From positions 1-61,595 of the forward strand of contig JAFGGQ010000148.1 of assembly GCA_016930435.1 (NCBI GenBank): DNA of 61,595 nucleotides, given 5' to 3'. The notes under the pieces were generated by a model. That model worked only from the letters and a program-made list of their open reading frames with translations. It was not told where the DNA came from and made no database searches. Below, piece by piece: positions 2,063 to 10,753 of this stretch. The first letter of the stretch is position 1; every line of letters starts with the position of its first letter. Source of the stretch: a bacterium. Its GTDB lineage: Bacteria; UBP14; UBA6098; JAFGQG01. A program made the translations under genes and the position numbers.

Positions 2063-5000
2063 GTGGGTAAAAAATTTCTATTAATAATGGTTATTGTAGG
2101 GTTTTGCGCAAATATTTGCCTGGCTGAACGCTGCAATATTCTAATCTACACCACGGGGGGGATGTATGCTGGCGACCGTTTTGATTCTCTAAAAGCTGTA
2201 CTCGAAGATATGGGCAATACGGTGCGATTAGAGGATCGCACTTCGATCTCCGATCTATCAAGTCTGTTACCGGGTGATTACTCCCAATGTTGGTTTATCA
2301 ACGGGGATACCAATCGCGCGGTTTCATTAAACACAGAGGAGCGAGATTCAATAATCCTGTTTGCCGAAAGCGGGGGTGGACTGGTTATTTTAGCGGATCA
2401 TGTATCTGGTTTAGCCTCTTATCATGCCGACGCTAATTTTATCTGTCAGGAATGGTTGCTTCAATTTAGCGGAAACCGTAATCACTCCTTTGGAGGAAGT
2501 CATACATGTAATCCTTATATACTGTTTTCAGACCACCCTATTTCTGAGTCGATCACAACATTATTCACCACAATCTCGGAAGCTGAAATACATTTCAGTG
2601 GATTGGATACAGATTGTCATCCTATAGCTATTTATGCTGAAGATACTTTACAATGCAGCTTTGAGATGGATGATGCTAAAATATTTTTGGATGGGTGTTT
2701 TGAAAGGTACCTGGATGAATTTATTCACGAGTGTGGGGGCGATAGTCTGGTCCGAAATATATCATGCTGGCTAGAACCTCATGGTTGTGGTTGTGAAGAA
2801 TTATATGTTTCTTCCATCGATTACCTCTGGTTCTGGGAGGAAACTGATTGCAACGATAGCAACATCGTCCATATCTGCTACCTTCTCAGCGGTGACACCA
2901 GCAATATTACGATCTCCCTGAGTAGTGATGGCGGTTTGACCTGGGAGGTTCCTTTATTCACTCTGCTGGATACCGTGGGTGACCTGGGAAGCGAAGTCGC
3001 TCCCGGGGAGCATTGTTTTCAATGGCTGATGAATGAAGACCTGCCGGATAGTGAAGGGATGAACTGGATGCTGGAGATTGCCACCGGTTATTCCCGGGGA
3101 TCCTGTTCGGATAGTGTACTCTATATCCTGGCTGATTCTTTTTACATAGGATACAGGGAGGGGCAGGATCTGGCGCATACGGATTCCACTATGCTGTTAG
3201 TGGCTAATCCCTATTCATCCATTATCTCAATCTATGAATTTTCGAAATGTACCAGTGCTCTGCTTCGCTCTGCGGAGATCCCGGTTGCCGCGTCATCTCC
3301 ACACCAGGGAATAACCTATGCTTTTGGTTTTATCTGGGTAACCGGTCATGACGGAGTAATCTATAAAGTTGACCATTCCACTTTAATGGTGGAAGGAAGA
3401 TATGCCCTGGACCGCTCAGGGTTGGCAGGTTCGCCTTATTATGAAGGTTTGACCTATGATGATAGTCTGCTTTATGTGATCGAGGATTGGAGCGCGGTCG
3501 GTGGGGCAAGTATGATCTTCGGCTTCGACCCTGATTCTGCTCTATCCTGTTCTGTCGCGTTACTGCCACGGGCTATAGACATTGATGTGCCAGATTATAA
3601 CTATGAAGGTTTTACTATGGCCGGGGGGGTGTTCTGGTGCACCTGTCCCGGTGATCATTCGATCAAGGGCATCGATCTGAGCGGCGCGGTGGTGGAAGAC
3701 TATCCGGCTCCGGGCCCCCTTACTAACGGAGCAGCCTGGGATGGCTGTTATCTTTTCCTCTCCGATCGGAACAGCCCCTGGGTTTTTATCTATGGAGACG
3801 GGGCAAGGTTATGGGAATGGTTGTGCCCATCCTCCTTAAGGGCTAATGCAAATCTGGATTCCCGGCCACCTGAAATCAACCTATTCTGTCCCGAGGGTAC
3901 ATTTGTAGAAGGAGATACGATCATATTCGATTGGTCGGTATCGGATTCCTTCTGGGTAAATGAGCCTTGCAGTCTGCATATCTATGGTTCTGGAAGGGAC
4001 CTTCATTTCGAAGTATCCGATACTTATTTTATCTGGGAGAGTTCGTTTGCCTGCTCCTCCTGCACGGTGGTTGTTGCCGCCCGGGATTCATTCTGCAACT
4101 GGGGATATGATAGTTGTGTAGTTATTATTGAACCTGCAGTTACAAGCCCTCGTATCGATTCTCTCTGGTTCTGGGAAGAAACGGAATGTGATGATACTAA
4201 CCGAGTACACATTTGTTATCATCTTAGTGGGGGTATTAGTGATGTTTATATAGAAGCAAGTACAAATGGGGGAATGACATGGGATGTTCCATTAGAAACC
4301 TTGGAAGATACAACAGGTGATATTGGATCAGATATACTTACTGGTTACCATTGTTTTACCTGGATTTTAAGTGAAGATCTGCCTAATTGGGAGGGGGAAT
4401 TATTACTTTCTATCTGCGCACCAATTGGAGATAGTATTGAATACTTTTATGATTTTGAAGATGGAACCTATAGCGATTTCGAAGAGTATGTTCCAGGAAG
4501 GTTTTTCGTAGTAGATGACGAAGCATATACAGGGTCTCTTTCTGTATATTGTGCTCATACAACTGGTGGTGATCATGATCGCATAATACACTTTGATCAC
4601 CGTTTTTCGAAAGGAAGAATAACCTGTTGGTTTAAGTGCATGGGCCCCAGTGCAGATGGTGATCTCTATATAAATTATGATACAAGTGCTATGTCAGGTT
4701 ACAGATGCAGCTATAGGCCCCGTTACACGGACGACCATGATTTTTTTGTAGCGTCTTTGGTGGATGGCCGACCAGATGAATATCTTCTATGGCATGATCC
4801 CATCCATGTGGACAGATACGAATGGTTCAAAGGGGAAATGGTTAGGGATGATGATTGGATATATATTAATGTTTATGATTCTTTCAATGTGCTAGTTGAT
4901 GAAGATTCGATAAGAGACTGTCGTTATTGTACTTATTGCCCTGGCCAGGCTACCGGTGTAGGGCTTTTTAATGGAGGCTATTTGGACGATGTTCTAATTA

Positions 5001-8000
5001 AATTTATCCCTTTGGATACTATAGGGATTTCTAACTACATTGATTCTTATCCACCAAGGGTATTCGTAAGATGCCCAGTTGAATCGATGAGCCCAGGAGA
5101 TACTGTAGAAATATCCTGGCATGTTGATGATCTCTTCTGGGCCAATGACCCTTGCAGTTTGCATATCTATGGTTCTGGAAGGGACCTTCATTTCGAAGTA
5201 TCCGATACTTATTTTATTTGGGAAAGTTCGTTTGCCTGCTCCTCCTGCACGGTGGTTGTTGCCGCCCGTGATTCCTTCTGCAACTGGGGATATGATAGCT
5301 GTGTAGTTATTATTGAACCTGCAGTTACAAGCCCTCGTATCGATTCTCTTTGGTTCTGGGAAGAAACGGAATGTGATAGGATCAATATTGTGAATATATG
5401 CTACATATTATCAGGAGACAGTGCTGATATTTCGTTTAGAATGAGTGCCGATTCCGGTTTGACCTGGTCAGTACCACTAGATAGTTTAATCAATATGGAG
5501 AATGACTTAGGGTGGGTTGATACCGGTGTACATTGCTTCGAATGGGTTATAAGCAGCGACCTGCCGGATACTGAAACTTGCAGATTTACTGTTGAAATTA
5601 TATCACGCTCCACTATGGTGGGTGAATTGTCCAACAGCAGCTTTGATGATTTTAGCGAGGGAGATACTACTTCAAATGTGAAAATAATGTCACCGGATCC
5701 TGATGGTACGGATGATGGCGCTTTATGGATACCTCCTGGAGAGGACACTATTAAGGTTCTTCAGATAGAGGCTGGTGGACCCTACTACACCCCATGTATC
5801 CCTGAAGCGATATACGCATACATGCTGGAGGGGGATCCACCACTGAGCATTAAGATATACCAGATCAACATATCTGCTTTTAATGCCTCCGCAGTTTCTC
5901 CATCGAGTATGCTTGAAGTGAGTTATGTCGATTACAGTGGTCTTTTAAGTCCTCCCGAATCGATCAGTCTAGCCAGTTTTGATCTGCTAATCTTTGGAAC
6001 CAGGGATTGCTACGGACACTATGATCTTACACTTTCCTCCGCTGATGCAGTAAGGTCGGTTGTGATTGGAGGTTCTGGATTAATGCTGACTCATGATACT
6101 GCTACTCCGCATGCGCCCTGTGGAGACCACAGTAATTTTTGCTCGTTGTATGATATAACCGGAATAACTTGTGATCCGGATATCCCCACAGACGATTGGG
6201 AGGGTTTTACCTCCGTTATACGAGTAGTCGAAACAGACCTTCCAATATTGAATACCCCTTTCGATATACCGGATACCTTCGATGTTATGCTGACCCATTG
6301 GTTGGGTCAAGGTGTTAGCGCTGGTTGGATTTTATACACGGGTCTTGATGCTCCTTATTCTGCTTTTGATAATGGTCTGTACTGGCAAGCTTATCACAAC
6401 CCTTTATACAATTCATTTTCCACCTTCTTCAGCTACGGGCATCGCCCTTTAGTGCCAGAAGAGTGGGAATCGAAAGCCATGATCAATTCCCTATTCTTTT
6501 CCCTGAACGGAGGAATTGGCACTGGGGTTTACAATAGTCCCGTCTATGAATATTGTGAGGGTACTTCAATTGATACCGTTGTATGGTCACTCACTGTTCC
6601 CCCTTGCGGCGGAGAATTGAATATTCAAATTGCCGTCGATACCTCGATCGGTATTACGGAATCCTGGACAGATTGGATACCGGTAATCACTGCAATCCAT
6701 GATCTCCCGGCTTTCGATCAATTACGCTATAGGGTAGGGATAACTGTCCAGCCGGGGTGTGAAAGCCCCATTTTGCACTGGATAAGGTTTAGGTTAACTG
6801 AACCTGATTATAGCAGTTACCATTATACTGGTTGTTTGGATTCCCGATCCCCCGAAGTTGTACTCCGGTGTCCCGAATCCCTATTTTTGGAAAGAGATAT
6901 GATCATATTCGATTGGTCGGTATCGGATTCCTTCTGGGTAAATGACCCTTGCAGTTTGCATATCTTTGGCTGTGGAACTGAACTTCACACCGAGGTTTCC
7001 GATACTTATTTTATTTGGGAAAGTTCGTTTGCCTGCTCCTCCTGTACGGTGGTTGTTGCCGCCCGGGATTCATTCTGCAACTGGGGGTACGATAGTTGTA
7101 TTATAAATATTGAAGCTTCGGTGCCCATAACCGCCTCTATCATTGAGCCTCTCCCAAACACCTGGACCAGTTGCGCAGACCAATTTATCGGTATCGTTTT
7201 GCATCCCGGCAGCATTATGGGTTGGATCTGTGAGGGAGAGACCTTGAACAGCCGTGGTGAATTGCCGGCAGCCCTGATCATTGGGACCTGGGATGGAGAT
7301 ACAACACCCTTTAGAGGGGAGATTTCTCCTTCACCGGGAGACAGCTATGGGGGCAGAACCTGGCTCACCCAGGAGGCCAATTACTGCACTACTTATTGTT
7401 ATTTTACTTGCGGGATCTCACCAGCAGCTGTCTGGCCGGAAGAGTATGCCACTGCCTATATGCATTTCTATATCTGCTCCCCGGATAACCGGGAAGCAGT
7501 CCTTTATATCGATGAGCACGATAATGCTCTTACTATCTGGCATAACGGAGATAGTATTTATTACTATGATCGGCAAAGGCTTTGTACAGAGGTCTCAGTT
7601 CATCTTGAAGCCTGCTGGAACCGGTTTCTTTTCAAGGTTTACAATACTACCATGACTACTTCCGCTGCCTGGAATGTTACCTGGGCTTTCTGGGATTCCA
7701 CCGGAAGTCCCATGACCGACCTGAGATATATTCTGGAAGTACCGGATACTTCCTATAGATCTCACTGCCCCATTGATCCGGGGAGTATCGATCTTACGCT
7801 GAATGGAGAACACTTTTCTGTTGGGGATGGTTATTTAGACCTGGTCGAGGATACGATACTTAGTTGGATACCAATGATTCCAGATTTTTTTGAAGATGGT
7901 GATACTGTGGAGGCGTGCTTGCTTTATGCCGGGGATTCCTGCGGTGGAACCTTAGAGGCCCCATTATGCTGGAATTTCTGGGTAGATCTCAGCGCGCCCC

Positions 8001-10753
8001 TCATAACTGACATCCTACCTTTACCAGGATCCACTATAGAGGATACCTCGCCGTTCATAGGATTTAGAATCGTCGACCCTCTATCCGGGGCCGATACAAG
8101 TTCCATGCAAATGACCGTGGACGGATGTCCGGTGAGTCCTTTTTTTTCCTGGTCGGGAACCGACTGGGAGGCCGGTTGGGAAGCCGCTGGGCCATTTATA
8201 CCCGGCGACAGCGTATTAGTATGTATTACCATAACAGACAGCACAGATTATTGTGAGGATAATCGACTGGATAGTTGTTGGGTTTTTTATATCCAGGATA
8301 CATGGCCCGAGATGAATGCCTCTATCATTGAGCCTCTCCCAAATACCTGGACCAGTTGCGCCGATCAGGCTATTATAATGCATCTTTTTGAAGGCGAAGG
8401 GGGGTGCACCGGTGCTCTAATTACAGAAGATGGAGAAATCCCGGAAGTATTGATCCTGGGTCCATTTGATTCCTCCGAAGAGCCATTGACCGACGCCGGA
8501 CTTTCAGAAATTCGGCCTTCCGAAGGGGATACTACTCTTGGCTATGCATGGTTTGCTGAAAATCCCTATCATTTCAGCTCGGATTACCATTGTGACTTGC
8601 CCTACATAGGGTTCGATTTCTATGATCTGGGTACGGAATGGAGTTCTATTCATGGATCATGTTATATACTTTTTTATCTTTGTACTCCCGAGGAACGAGA
8701 CATCTGTATGGCCTGGTGTATCGATGATGATATCATGATCTGGCTAAACGGCAGTCTTATATATTCTGATCGCGATGGTTCTGCCGAGTATGATTATACT
8801 TGTGATTTTCACCTTACTCCTGGTTATAATACGGTGCTTTTATGGGCTTCAAACTCCGGGGGGTTGAGAGCCTGGGATTTTAAATGGCATTTCGAAGATA
8901 GCCTCGGTGAATCTATTACAGATCTTTACTATTCTATTACATCGCCAGCCAGTGGGGCTTTAAGTTGCCCCATTGATCCTTCTTCCATACTCTTTACTGT
9001 AGAAAGTCTTCTTTATTCGGTGGGTGACGGTTTCTTGTCCTTTAGTGACGATTCAGTATTAACCTGGATTCCTATTTTACCGGATACTTTCCATAATGGT
9101 GATACTATAACAGCTTGCTTAGTAGCAGCAGATGACAGTTGTGGAGGAACCATACCCGATCTACCAATATGCTGGAATTTTTATGTTGATCTTACTCCCC
9201 CAGCTGTATTTAATATTTACCCACCCCCTGATACTACGCTATTTTATTACTTAACTGAATGGACATTTTACCTAGTGGATTCCTTATCAGGGCTTAACAC
9301 AGCTTCATTAACCCTAAATGCAAATGGTATTGAGATAGACCCTTGGATGGAATGGAGGGAAGAAGGATTGTGGATATCATGGAACCCGGACTCTGAAATG
9401 CTTTTTACTGACTCGGTGGCAGTCTGTTTATCCCTATCTGATACTACGGACTATTGTCCAGATAACTGGCTGGATACTTGCTGGAGCATCTATTTAGAAA
9501 ATCCCTGCAGCTTATTTCTAGCCTTACCTGAAACGCTTGCCTATCCAGGTGATACTTTGATTATACCTTTATTTTATAGTACTGTTGGAGCTTTTTCTAC
9601 TGATAACTTTCAATGTATCATCCAATTTAGAGAGGAGATTATCCAAATATTGACTTTGGAATTTGAAGATAGTCGAATGGATGATTGGACAATGGTAGAT
9701 TTCGATACCAGTATCAGTGGATTTTTAACTATTAGCGGGTCAGGAGATTTTATTCCCGAGGATTCCATTTTATGCTGGATAAAGCTATTGATAAGATTCA
9801 CTGCTTCAGAAGGCTGTTATACGGAACTCAGCTTCGGTTCGATAGATCTCTTTGACAGGGATTGTTACTTGACCTGGGAGAATGGTTTCATAAGCTTGCT
9901 TATAAGGGAGAGGGAGTGGTTGTTTGATCTGGTTTTTAGAAGCATTCAATTTAGAAATTCTACCATACTTACCATGGGCATGAACAGTTTTGGGTCGGAA
10001 GCCTATGATTCCGGCTTGGATATTATATATTTACCGGTACCCAGCTCCCCGCCCACCTGGTTCACCCTGGATGATTCCTCCGCTCCGCATATAACGAAAC
10101 TATCCAGGGATATTAGAAATGTTTCAGAAGTCCCTCAAATATGGACTGTCCATACTACTGATTATGAAGGTGATTTATCATGGATACCGGAACTACTGCC
10201 ACCAGGGGATTTTCTTATTAACGAACTTGTTGATATGCGAGCTAATGATGAATATCACTATGAAGCTTTTGAAGTACTGACTATTGAATATGATCGTCCC
10301 GAATTGGGACGATATACCTTTTCTCTGGAAGAAGGCTGGAATATGATATCATTCCCGGTTATCCCAACTTGCGGGGATTGGTATGACTGGTTTCCCGAAA
10401 TGTTAGGTGCAGCTTATTACTACGATCCTGAAAGCAGATGTTACGGTACAGCAACGTTACCCGAAAGGGGCAAAGGATATTGGGTTTATTTAAGAAGTGA
10501 TACTATAATCGAAATTGTAGGCTATCTTATAGACAGCTATAATTTGGAGATTGCTGAAGGTTGGAATATCATTGGCGGGACCACTGATACGGTGATAGCG
10601 GATTATATCGGATACGATCCGCCGGTTATAATAATTACGCCTCTTTATTTCTATTCTATGGGGTATTACTTGGATTCCTACGAATTAATTCCAACAAAAG
10701 CCTATTGGTTGTTTAGTATGGGAAATTCCCTTATTTCTGTAAGTGCTCCATAA
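2063..10753 (+). CDS. Giant (2896 aa) secreted, acidic, Cys/Trp-rich modular surface protein. Order: GATase-like N-domain, 3 type-A scaffold modules with different inserts, 2 type-B modules with PA14-like inserts, cohesin-like domain, twin GWN-repeat C-terminus
   Basis: GTG start after AGGGGA; signal peptide MGKKFLLIMVIVGFCANICLA; WFWEETxC and AARDSFCNWGYDSC each x3; ASIIEPLPNTWTSCADQ and CPIDPxSI each x2; LALPETLAYPGDTLIIPL (cohesin-like); LEEGWNMIS/IAEGWNIIG. Confidence 0.85.
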   Translation: MGKKFLLIMVIVGFCANICLAERCNILIYTTGGMYAGDRFDSLKAVLEDMGNTVRLEDRTSISDLSSLLPGDYSQCWFINGDTNRAVSLNTEERDSIILFAESGGGLVILADHVSGLASYHADANFICQEWLLQFSGNRNHSFGGSHTCNPYILFSDHPISESITTLFTTISEAEIHFSGLDTDCHPIAIYAEDTLQCSFEMDDAKIFLDGCFERYLDEFIHECGGDSLVRNISCWLEPHGCGCEELYVSSIDYLWFWEETDCNDSNIVHICYLLSGDTSNITISLSSDGGLTWEVPLFTLLDTVGDLGSEVAPGEHCFQWLMNEDLPDSEGMNWMLEIATGYSRGSCSDSVLYILADSFYIGYREGQDLAHTDSTMLLVANPYSSIISIYEFSKCTSALLRSAEIPVAASSPHQGITYAFGFIWVTGHDGVIYKVDHSTLMVEGRYALDRSGLAGSPYYEGLTYDDSLLYVIEDWSAVGGASMIFGFDPDSALSCSVALLPRAIDIDVPDYNYEGFTMAGGVFWCTCPGDHSIKGIDLSGAVVEDYPAPGPLTNGAAWDGCYLFLSDRNSPWVFIYGDGARLWEWLCPSSLRANANLDSRPPEINLFCPEGTFVEGDTIIFDWSVSDSFWVNEPCSLHIYGSGRDLHFEVSDTYFIWESSFACSSCTVVVAARDSFCNWGYDSCVVIIEPAVTSPRIDSLWFWEETECDDTNRVHICYHLSGGISDVYIEASTNGGMTWDVPLETLEDTTGDIGSDILTGYHCFTWILSEDLPNWEGELLLSICAPIGDSIEYFYDFEDGTYSDFEEYVPGRFFVVDDEAYTGSLSVYCAHTTGGDHDRIIHFDHRFSKGRITCWFKCMGPSADGDLYINYDTSAMSGYRCSYRPRYTDDHDFFVASLVDGRPDEYLLWHDPIHVDRYEWFKGEMVRDDDWIYINVYDSFNVLVDEDSIRDCRYCTYCPGQATGVGLFNGGYLDDVLIKFIPLDTIGISNYIDSYPPRVFVRCPVESMSPGDTVEISWHVDDLFWANDPCSLHIYGSGRDLHFEVSDTYFIWESSFACSSCTVVVAARDSFCNWGYDSCVVIIEPAVTSPRIDSLWFWEETECDRINIVNICYILSGDSADISFRMSADSGLTWSVPLDSLINMENDLGWVDTGVHCFEWVISSDLPDTETCRFTVEIISRSTMVGELSNSSFDDFSEGDTTSNVKIMSPDPDGTDDGALWIPPGEDTIKVLQIEAGGPYYTPCIPEAIYAYMLEGDPPLSIKIYQINISAFNASAVSPSSMLEVSYVDYSGLLSPPESISLASFDLLIFGTRDCYGHYDLTLSSADAVRSVVIGGSGLMLTHDTATPHAPCGDHSNFCSLYDITGITCDPDIPTDDWEGFTSVIRVVETDLPILNTPFDIPDTFDVMLTHWLGQGVSAGWILYTGLDAPYSAFDNGLYWQAYHNPLYNSFSTFFSYGHRPLVPEEWESKAMINSLFFSLNGGIGTGVYNSPVYEYCEGTSIDTVVWSLTVPPCGGELNIQIAVDTSIGITESWTDWIPVITAIHDLPAFDQLRYRVGITVQPGCESPILHWIRFRLTEPDYSSYHYTGCLDSRSPEVVLRCPESLFLERDMIIFDWSVSDSFWVNDPCSLHIFGCGTELHTEVSDTYFIWESSFACSSCTVVVAARDSFCNWGYDSCIINIEASVPITASIIEPLPNTWTSCADQFIGIVLHPGSIMGWICEGETLNSRGELPAALIIGTWDGDTTPFRGEISPSPGDSYGGRTWLTQEANYCTTYCYFTCGISPAAVWPEEYATAYMHFYICSPDNREAVLYIDEHDNALTIWHNGDSIYYYDRQRLCTEVSVHLEACWNRFLFKVYNTTMTTSAAWNVTWAFWDSTGSPMTDLRYILEVPDTSYRSHCPIDPGSIDLTLNGEHFSVGDGYLDLVEDTILSWIPMIPDFFEDGDTVEACLLYAGDSCGGTLEAPLCWNFWVDLSAPLITDILPLPGSTIEDTSPFIGFRIVDPLSGADTSSMQMTVDGCPVSPFFSWSGTDWEAGWEAAGPFIPGDSVLVCITITDSTDYCEDNRLDSCWVFYIQDTWPEMNASIIEPLPNTWTSCADQAIIMHLFEGEGGCTGALITEDGEIPEVLILGPFDSSEEPLTDAGLSEIRPSEGDTTLGYAWFAENPYHFSSDYHCDLPYIGFDFYDLGTEWSSIHGSCYILFYLCTPEERDICMAWCIDDDIMIWLNGSLIYSDRDGSAEYDYTCDFHLTPGYNTVLLWASNSGGLRAWDFKWHFEDSLGESITDLYYSITSPASGALSCPIDPSSILFTVESLLYSVGDGFLSFSDDSVLTWIPILPDTFHNGDTITACLVAADDSCGGTIPDLPICWNFYVDLTPPAVFNIYPPPDTTLFYYLTEWTFYLVDSLSGLNTASLTLNANGIEIDPWMEWREEGLWISWNPDSEMLFTDSVAVCLSLSDTTDYCPDNWLDTCWSIYLENPCSLFLALPETLAYPGDTLIIPLFYSTVGAFSTDNFQCIIQFREEIIQILTLEFEDSRMDDWTMVDFDTSISGFLTISGSGDFIPEDSILCWIKLLIRFTASEGCYTELSFGSIDLFDRDCYLTWENGFISLLIREREWLFDLVFRSIQFRNSTILTMGMNSFGSEAYDSGLDIIYLPVPSSPPTWFTLDDSSAPHITKLSRDIRNVSEVPQIWTVHTTDYEGDLSWIPELLPPGDFLINELVDMRANDEYHYEAFEVLTIEYDRPELGRYTFSLEEGWNMISFPVIPTCGDWYDWFPEMLGAAYYYDPESRCYGTATLPERGKGYWVYLRSDTIIEIVGYLIDSYNLEIAEGWNIIGGTTDTVIADYIGYDPPVIIITPLYFYSMGYYLDSYELIPTKAYWLFSMGNSLISVSAP
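3965..4192 (+). repeat. Intragenic 228-bp direct repeat, copy 1 (module A1/A2 junction)
   Basis: Aligns by eye with 5150-5377 with 7 mismatches, all synonymous. Confidence 0.93.
5150..5377 (+). repeat. Intragenic 228-bp direct repeat, copy 2 (module A2/A3 junction)
   Basis: About 97% identical to 3965-4192; encodes PCSLHIYGSG...WFWEETECD. Confidence 0.93.
6901..7099 (+). repeat. Intragenic repeat, copy 3 (mosaic of copies 1 and 2)
   Basis: The 5' part gatcatattc...gtaaatga matches 3919 onward (copy 1 flank). Internal SNPs agtttg and atttgggaa match copy 2, while cgggattca matches copy 1. Confidence 0.88.
7133..7176 (+). repeat. 44-bp direct repeat opening module B1 (partner at 8318-8361)
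   Basis: gcctctatcattgagcctctcccaaa(c/t)acctggaccagttgcgc, 43/44 identical. Confidence 0.9.
8318..8361 (+). repeat. 44-bp direct repeat opening module B2 (partner at 7133-7176)
   Basis: 43/44 identical to 7133-7176; encodes ASIIEPLPNTWTSCA. Confidence 0.9.

Follow-up and report, generated by a model that had tools for sequence, protein, structure and literature searches.

Contig JAFGGQ010000148.1 of assembly GCA_016930435.1, from a bacterium of the GTDB lineage UBP14, UBA6098, JAFGQG01, was analysed over 61,595 nucleotides (nt), and this whole stretch is referred to here as the window. One open reading frame (ORF) of the window, of 2896 amino acids (aa) and at 2063-10753 on the + strand, encodes a giant modular protein which is probably secreted. 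The subject of this study is the near-identical DNA that recurs at the seams between the modules of this gene, all three copies of which fall within the one open frame. Module borders were placed by self-blastp in 120-aa chunks and by hidden Markov models (HMMs) built from the gene's own copies (Table 1). On the N-terminal side the order is an N-terminal domain (aa 1-250), scaffold domain B0, payload 1 (250 aa) and scaffold domain A1; the middle consists of B1, payload 2 (214 aa) and A2, followed by B2, payload 3 (404 aa, with a weak DUF5057 match) and A3; the C-terminal side holds two 395-aa C repeats and then a C-terminal part of 415 aa. A cassette is thus an immunoglobulin (Ig)-like domain B, an unrelated payload and an Ig-like domain A, and self-blastp in chunks detected no similarity between one insert and another at E<=1e-4.

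Little of this protein is annotated. A Pfam search of the ORF returned only the weak DUF5057 match and sub-threshold Asp-box matches, an NCBIfam search matched no family, and neither collection assigns a family to A or B, to payloads 1 and 2, to the C repeats or to the C-terminal part. For A and B nothing rose above the curated Pfam and NCBIfam cut-offs, the sub-threshold Asp-box being the sole match, and the leads given by the protein Atlas were the bacterial Ig families Big_7 and Big_9, every score being <0.9. An AlphaFold model of A1-B1, built on an alignment of 33 family pairs, is all-beta with 13 strands and a mean confidence (predicted local distance difference test, pLDDT) of 90.3. Compared with the PDB, the model gave 155 matches at E<=0.001, and since the best of these are tandem Ig-type chains, A and B are predicted to be two Ig-like sandwich domains; the template modelling (TM) scores of 0.35-0.45 reflect a different orientation of the two domains. 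P0030, a single-cassette database protein of 610 aa with a precomputed bacterial-lectin Pfam assignment (PF18483) and a tail for type-IX secretion, can be aligned over its whole length with B1-payload 2-A2 at 32% identity. That payload 2 may be lectin-like is a lead only. The evolutionary unit appears to be B-payload-A, and for such a unit the repeated DNA sits on the seam between cassettes.

An earlier note on this DNA had reported that 3965-4192 and 5150-5377 differ at 7 of 228 positions, every one synonymous, and a recount agrees; the seven differences (copy 1/copy 2) are C/T, C/T, G/A, G/T, A/C, T/C and C/T. The two copies are spaced 1185 nt, or 395 codons, apart and are in frame, again as reported; the frame is that of the ORF with its start at 2063. 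The same note had described the neighbouring scaffold as diverged and the inserts as unrelated, with which both the chunked self-blastp and the flanks agree: 11 of 31 residues are identical between copies 1 and 2 in 3851-3943, and 19 of 49 in 4193-4339. The tract proved slightly longer than first described (249 nt at 95%), and blastn returns it as a direct repeat of 244 nt at 95.9% identity, with exact runs of 58, 50, 44, 27 and 23 nt. Its 3' edge is sharp, at 4192/4193. A two-breakpoint max-chi-square scan over 489 aligned bases chose 3950-4192, where there are 10 differences in 243 positions versus 135 in 246 outside; the statistic of 151 was reached in 0 of 200 shuffles, whose top value was 15.4. 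On the structural model the tract corresponds to residues 39-121. It starts behind strand 2 of A, takes in the remaining five strands of that domain and the linker, and ends behind strand 1 of B, so that it is no folding unit.

The discontinuity is most pronounced at silent sites. Within the tract, the Nei-Gojobori synonymous divergence (dS) between copies 1 and 2 is ~0.17 and the nonsynonymous divergence (dN) is 0.02, with 80 of 83 residues identical, and on both sides of the tract silent sites are saturated (proportion of synonymous differences, pS, 0.80 and 0.97). At degenerate codons for the same residue, the two copies agree in 68 of 75 cases within the tract, as against 4 of 10 and 3 of 18 in its two flanks (Fisher p 2e-10, tract vs flanks). 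These counts bear directly on the proposal that no exchange took place and that the tract is nothing more than the most strongly constrained stretch of the two domains, through selection on the protein or on the RNA. Constraint of that kind would be in keeping with the presence, inside the tract, of the two most conserved motifs of the family, ARDSFCNWGYDTC and IDSVWFWEETxC. However, protein selection does not hold silent sites, and the proportion of identical degenerate codons nonetheless falls to 7 of 28 as soon as the tract is left. Furthermore, the same motifs in a paralogue on contig C77 show just 76-79% DNA identity over 67-83 nt, and the copies in other family proteins are anciently diverged. 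Constraint without exchange is hardly credible on these data.

Phylogenetic trees place the three A copies of this gene together. In the A-domain tree (57 rows), A1, A2 and A3 form one clade with a Shimodaira-Hasegawa-like approximate likelihood ratio test (SH-aLRT) value of 99. In four relatives with four A copies each (L043, L044, P0007 and P0008), copies at the same position cluster across genomes, and each protein needs 4 changes. The three B copies of this gene are ungrouped in the B-domain tree (59 rows; 3 changes), and the B bodies, like the 5' part of A2, are at least as close to the copies of other genomes as to their siblings. For the part of A2 that precedes the tract, the closest five sequences all belong to other organisms, at 41-45% identity; within the tract, A2 matches A1 at 100% and A3 at 83%, and the next best neighbour reaches 56%. 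Because its neighbours change at the tract edge, A2 is chimeric, and judging from these affinities it would combine an old 5' part with a copied 3' part, adjoined by B bodies that likewise appear old. Such relations argue for conversion and against the recent duplication of an entire module.

Copy 3 is a mosaic of the other two. As had been noted before, it has CGGGATTCA in common with copy 1 and both AGTTTG and ATTTGGGAA in common with copy 2, and its private patch is also present (FGCGTELHT vs YGSGRDLHF). In the coordinates of copy 1, the differences between copies 1 and 2, copies 1 and 3, and copies 2 and 3 number 30, 5 and 31 in 3901-3964; 1, 12 and 11 in 3965-4030; 5, 5 and 6 in 4031-4117; and 1, 50 and 50 in 4118-4192. 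A recombination test on all three copies, which the earlier note had called for, supports a mosaic with at least two breakpoints: there are 50 odd-one-out sites, grouped into 10 runs, and as few runs were obtained in 0 of 10000 shuffles. From the segment pattern of copy 3 it follows that at least two events with different endpoints are needed. A second, shorter seam patch joins the starts of the two C repeats (Table 1); there, 12 of 13 same-residue codons are identical, versus roughly a third to half elsewhere in the C repeat. The spacing of the C repeats (7133-7182 vs 8318-8367) is 1185 nt and so equals that of seam copies 1 and 2 (3944 vs 5129), the sequences being unrelated. This equality is probably a coincidence, though an unexplained one.

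Base composition also changes at the tract edges. The 936 nt between the two tracts have a GC content at third codon positions (GC3) of 0.285, and the edges of this low segment coincide with those of the tracts. Among 1860 blocks of 312 codons taken from long open frames of the genome (mean GC3 0.494, standard deviation 0.055), 0.27% are as low. Within the segment, GC3 is 0.22 in the B1 body, 0.31 in payload 2 and 0.27 in the 5' part of A2; it is 0.43 in the tracts, 0.45 in the 5' part of A1 and 0.46 in A3 (tract 1 vs B1 body, Fisher p 0.009). The gene as a whole is patchy in this respect, with values of 0.63 in B0 (2813-3079), 0.50 in payload 1 and 0.22 in the B1 body (4193-4396); the N-terminal domain, C repeat 2 and the C-terminal part lie at 0.35-0.37. 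The composition suggests a different source for the middle cassette, with copy 1 or 3 having overwritten its A end, in which case copying would have run from copy 1 or 3 into copy 2.

An island of 936 nt whose edges match those of the tracts is also what would be expected if a 1185-nt unit (the B1 body, payload 2, the 5' part of A2 and one tract) had been inserted or duplicated through one crossover whose partner was circular or misaligned, thereby doubling the seam tract. Such an event would also fit a B body and an A 5' part that are no closer to their siblings than to the copies of other genomes, and a family in which single cassettes and varied orders are seen. However, the incoming tract would have had to be at least 97% identical at silent sites yet more than 50% different right beside it, and insertion therefore presupposes a conversion-like mosaic. 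It leaves the separate mosaic of copy 3 and the 7124/8309 patch unexplained, and no donor was found in the organism's own genome. We regard cassette insertion as unlikely.

One sequencing run contains the stretch (share 0.86), and its k=31-type contigs were used for comparison. They supplied four pieces, with no joint reported and no joined or deleted form among them. Three of these contigs match unique parts of the gene with 0 mismatches (3605-3963, 4135-4900 and 5320-6852), and at the C/T difference 4165/5350 the two with starts at 4135 and 5320 are each true to their own copy. The bin may itself derive from this run, whose contigs are therefore no independent evidence. The likeness of the copies could be an assembly artefact, in which reads of paralogues or strain variants were collapsed or cross-threaded in a metagenome bin; the bin has 180 contigs, and the run contigs break at 3963/4135, 4900/5320 and 6852, none of them bridging the repeats. 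Yet the contigs from 4135 and 5320 join their own 4165/5350 allele to their own downstream insert, the longest shared exact run (58 nt) is shorter than ordinary reads, which would then be expected to span the variants, and the frame is open across 2896 codons. An artefact is accordingly very unlikely. A 5197-nt contig of the same run matches 4061-4112 with 7 mismatches and 5275-5304 with 1 mismatch and is then unlike the window; since it diverges in this way, a second organism with the same domain family is present in the sample.

The junctions had also been proposed to allow exchange, possibly with paralogues elsewhere in the genome, and the genome lent this part of the proposal no support. 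The organism's own genome is a bin of 2.85 Mb in 180 contigs that is 90% complete, and in it neither blastn nor the genome searches found a near-identical copy outside this gene. Contigs C77, C18 and C74 encode paralogous A/B proteins that are 39-46% identical; in DNA, the best match covers 67-83 nt at 76-79%. In antigenic variation of the pilE/pilS or vlsE type, an archive of silent partial copies is kept elsewhere in the genome. A programme of this sort, or a diversity-generating retroelement, could be imagined for a large surface protein with direct in-frame repeats and mosaic exchange. However, adenine occurs in either copy at just 2 of the 7 differences, all 7 of which are silent, and no silent copies are found elsewhere in the 90%-complete genome. 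The four ORFs adjoining the gene are a 5'-nucleotidase, a methyltransferase, a sugar dehydratase/epimerase and MutS2; no search for a reverse transcriptase was made. The gene was rejected as a retroelement target on the ground that the differences are not confined to template adenines, and silent-cassette variation on the ground that every near-identical match lies inside this gene. We give programmed diversity next to no chance.

The A/B pair is found in 25 of the 41 genomes searched, which comprise 25 of 26 from the window's class (its own included) and 0 of 15 from outside it; some database matches are labelled Zixibacteria, a label that rests on the names of 4 matches alone. No close orthologue was found among proteins of similar length (14 matches, best non-self 51%), among shorter proteins (68 matches, best 60% over 13% of the query) or in a metagenome scan (34 loci, best 57%), and none of these matches is near enough for the events to be dated or polarised. 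Fifty family loci, picked by similarity to the query, were fetched; 21 have at least two A or B copies, and 6 of these 21 have direct repeats of at least 80% identity and at least 60 nt. The direct repeats lie in frame on the scaffolds in 4 of the 21 (L040, L041, L052 and L065), and outside the domains and out of frame in L036 and L074. The payloads of the four in-frame loci either show no relationship or reach no more than 30-44% identity across short stretches, with the exception of payloads 1 and 3 of L052, which are 62% identical to each other. L040 and L041 are mutually related, and the four loci are therefore not independent cases. In the metagenome locus L065 (5037-9662), three cassettes have scaffolds and a 113-aa extra domain at 91-98% DNA identity over 182-785 nt; two copies of the extra domain are 86% identical in protein, and the payloads, of 244-248 aa, are 30-44% identical over short stretches. 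This locus looks like a case of conserved scaffolds with fast-diverging payloads.

Modules of the gene recur at other places in its relatives. The N-terminal domain (2063-2812, aa 23-245) is internal, after the last A, in P0003, P0005, P0007, P0008 and P0009, these five giants matching it around aa 1565-1800 at 38-43% identity, and it is near the N-terminus in the C77 paralogue. Payload 3 has relatives in seven other loci at 40-51% identity, and payloads 1 and 2 have no blastp relative at E<=1e-5 among the fetched family loci. The occurrence of the same payloads at different positions in different family members, together with the 4 of 21 multi-copy loci whose scaffolds are homogenised around unrelated payloads, fits, and lends support to, a shuffling of cassettes that may have proceeded over evolutionary time.

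We consider it likely that intragenic (ectopic) gene conversion at the A-B seams, followed by purifying selection, produced the repeats described here. Short stretches of DNA would have been copied from seam to seam within the gene by RecA-type homologous recombination, one event making 3944-4192 and 5129-5377 alike and another making 3901-3964 and 6883-6946 alike. The tract edges lie at family-conserved motifs, D-x-F...PCS on the 5' side and WFWEETxC on the 3' side, beyond which the copies would be too different for exchange to go on. Because all 7 changes in 228 nt are silent, both copies would have been under strong purifying selection since the event that joined copies 1 and 2, and a dS of ~0.17 with 80 of 83 residues kept implies that some time has passed under such selection. 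The earlier note's reading of the junctions as a footprint of recent recombination or gene conversion is thus upheld by the jump at silent sites, by the single clade that A1, A2 and A3 form, by the chimeric structure of A2 and by the breakpoints of the mosaic, with the reservation that "recent" applies in a relative sense only. Under gene conversion, the 244-nt direct repeat could now mediate in-frame loss of the 1185-nt cassette.

Several points weigh against gene conversion as we have set it out. Outside the conserved motifs, the copies were probably 60-70% identical in DNA before the event; identity of this order makes a poor RecA substrate, and the start of the event is left unexplained. 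There is no outgroup above ~50% protein identity, and for this reason donor and recipient cannot be proven. The direction of copying rests on short segments and is weakly supported on that account, the comparison of tract 2 with the 5' part of A2 giving a Fisher p of only 0.19. Finally, the original assembly is the sole source for the module order; the run contigs stop at the repeats and none bridges them. A more far-reaching possibility, which we think rather unlikely, is that the A-B seam serves as a standard connector with which this class swaps payload cassettes among giant surface proteins by homologous recombination, the payload-2 cassette, of foreign composition and flanked by the 244-nt repeats, being a recent arrival that would still be gained and lost in the population.

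Table 1. Features of the giant gene and its seams, in window coordinates
Feature	Coordinates	Strand	Remarks
Giant ORF	2063..10753	+	2896 aa, GTG start; N-terminus hydrophobic, signal-like (judged by eye)
B0, first copy of scaffold domain B	2813..3079	+	aa 251-339, Asp-box SSDGGLTW; self-blastp, HMM
A1, scaffold domain A copy 1	3830..4141	+	aa 590-693; self-blastp, HMM, AlphaFold model
Likely conversion tract, copy 1	3944..4192	+	aa 628-710: latter two thirds of A1, linker, opening 12 codons of B1
B1, scaffold domain B copy 2	4151..4396	+	aa 697-778; tract covers the head only
Segment between tracts	4193..5128	+	B1 body, payload 2, 5' third of A2; GC3 outlier
A2, scaffold domain A copy 2	5039..5326	+	aa 993-1088; chimeric, apparently old 5' and converted 3' part
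Likely conversion tract, copy 2	5129..5377	+	DNA self-comparison, blastn, silent-site counts
B2, scaffold domain B copy 3	5336..5599	+	aa 1092-1179; self-blastp, HMM
A3, scaffold domain A copy 3	6812..7123	+	aa 1584-1687; next module is a C repeat, no B domain
Mosaic copy 3	6883..7117	+	88% identical to 3901-4135, 87% to 5134-5320
Second, shorter seam patch	7124..7182	+	start of C repeat 1; blastn 50 nt, 94%
Partner of second seam patch	8309..8367	+	start of C repeat 2

Other repeated elements of this genome also came to light. The C-terminal part of the protein (9503-10750, aa 2481-2896; no Pfam match) is 30-43% identical to parts of at least eight other large ORFs of the genome, on contigs C77, C147, C39, C20, C66 and C94, and 30-48% identical to sequences outside it in L037, L038 and L085; it is probably a common anchoring or sorting end of this genome's giant proteins. 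A dispersed non-coding repeat of ~340 nt, with its reference copy at G000:C118:2167-2509 (L087), is also present on C50, C18, C97, C92, C146 and others. It gave 24 blastn matches (E<=1e-10) on 21 contigs, nearly all at 89-100% identity and two at 73% and 80%. An ORF of at least 90 aa was found in 0 of 4 inspected copies and an Rfam match at E<=0.01 in 0 of 3 tested copies. Contig ends cut 11 of the 24 copies, and the repeat therefore breaks the assembly. A second repeat family links C167, C96 and C133.

The locus offers a clean, quantified example of how uncultured bacteria hold together and rebuild their giant modular surface proteins, in that conserved Ig-like seam domains are repeatedly homogenised and the payloads between them differ. 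If it is true that the repeats drive cassette loss or exchange, they would constitute a simple switch of surface function and a natural model of in-frame domain shuffling; if the seam is indeed a connector, it would be a natural system for in-frame domain shuffling and not a matter of occasional conversion. The practical value of the finding is a caution over the module order of this gene, and it points to the unannotated A/B domain pair.

The closest parallels are found in surface proteins with internal repeats. In PMC8201768, the Periscope Proteins (SasG, Rib, Sgo_0707 and CdrA) are described as surface proteins with arrays of near-identical repeats, whose high DNA identity is proposed to enable in-frame intragenic recombination and hence length variation. 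The present gene likewise encodes a large surface-type protein with repeated beta-sandwich spacer domains, and it shares a high inter-repeat DNA identity (244 nt at 95.9%), here over part of a domain pair. In contrast, the repeats of the Periscope Proteins, as described there, are tandem, many and whole-domain, whereas here three A and three B copies are parted by payloads of 250, 214 and 404 aa, and the identical tract, smaller than a domain, spans a seam. Recombination among the former alters the length of a stalk; here it would remove or move a payload. Length variation between strains defines the Periscope class. In cagY of Helicobacter pylori, direct DNA repeats lie within a surface-protein gene and the recombination products are in frame, as set out in PMC2194252. 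The rearrangements of cagY were seen experimentally, whereas none was observed here, and neither the protein family nor the organism is related.

Conversion between repeats inside a gene is a well-known process. Concerted evolution by ectopic gene conversion leaves a local drop in silent divergence, sharp edges, mosaic breakpoints and clustering of copies within a genome. The seams of this gene are in principle the same, with clustering that holds for the A copies and fails for the B bodies. The distinctive feature here is the placing of the patches at the joints between B-payload-A cassettes, within an unannotated and class-restricted pair of domains, so that the direct repeats bracket a whole payload.

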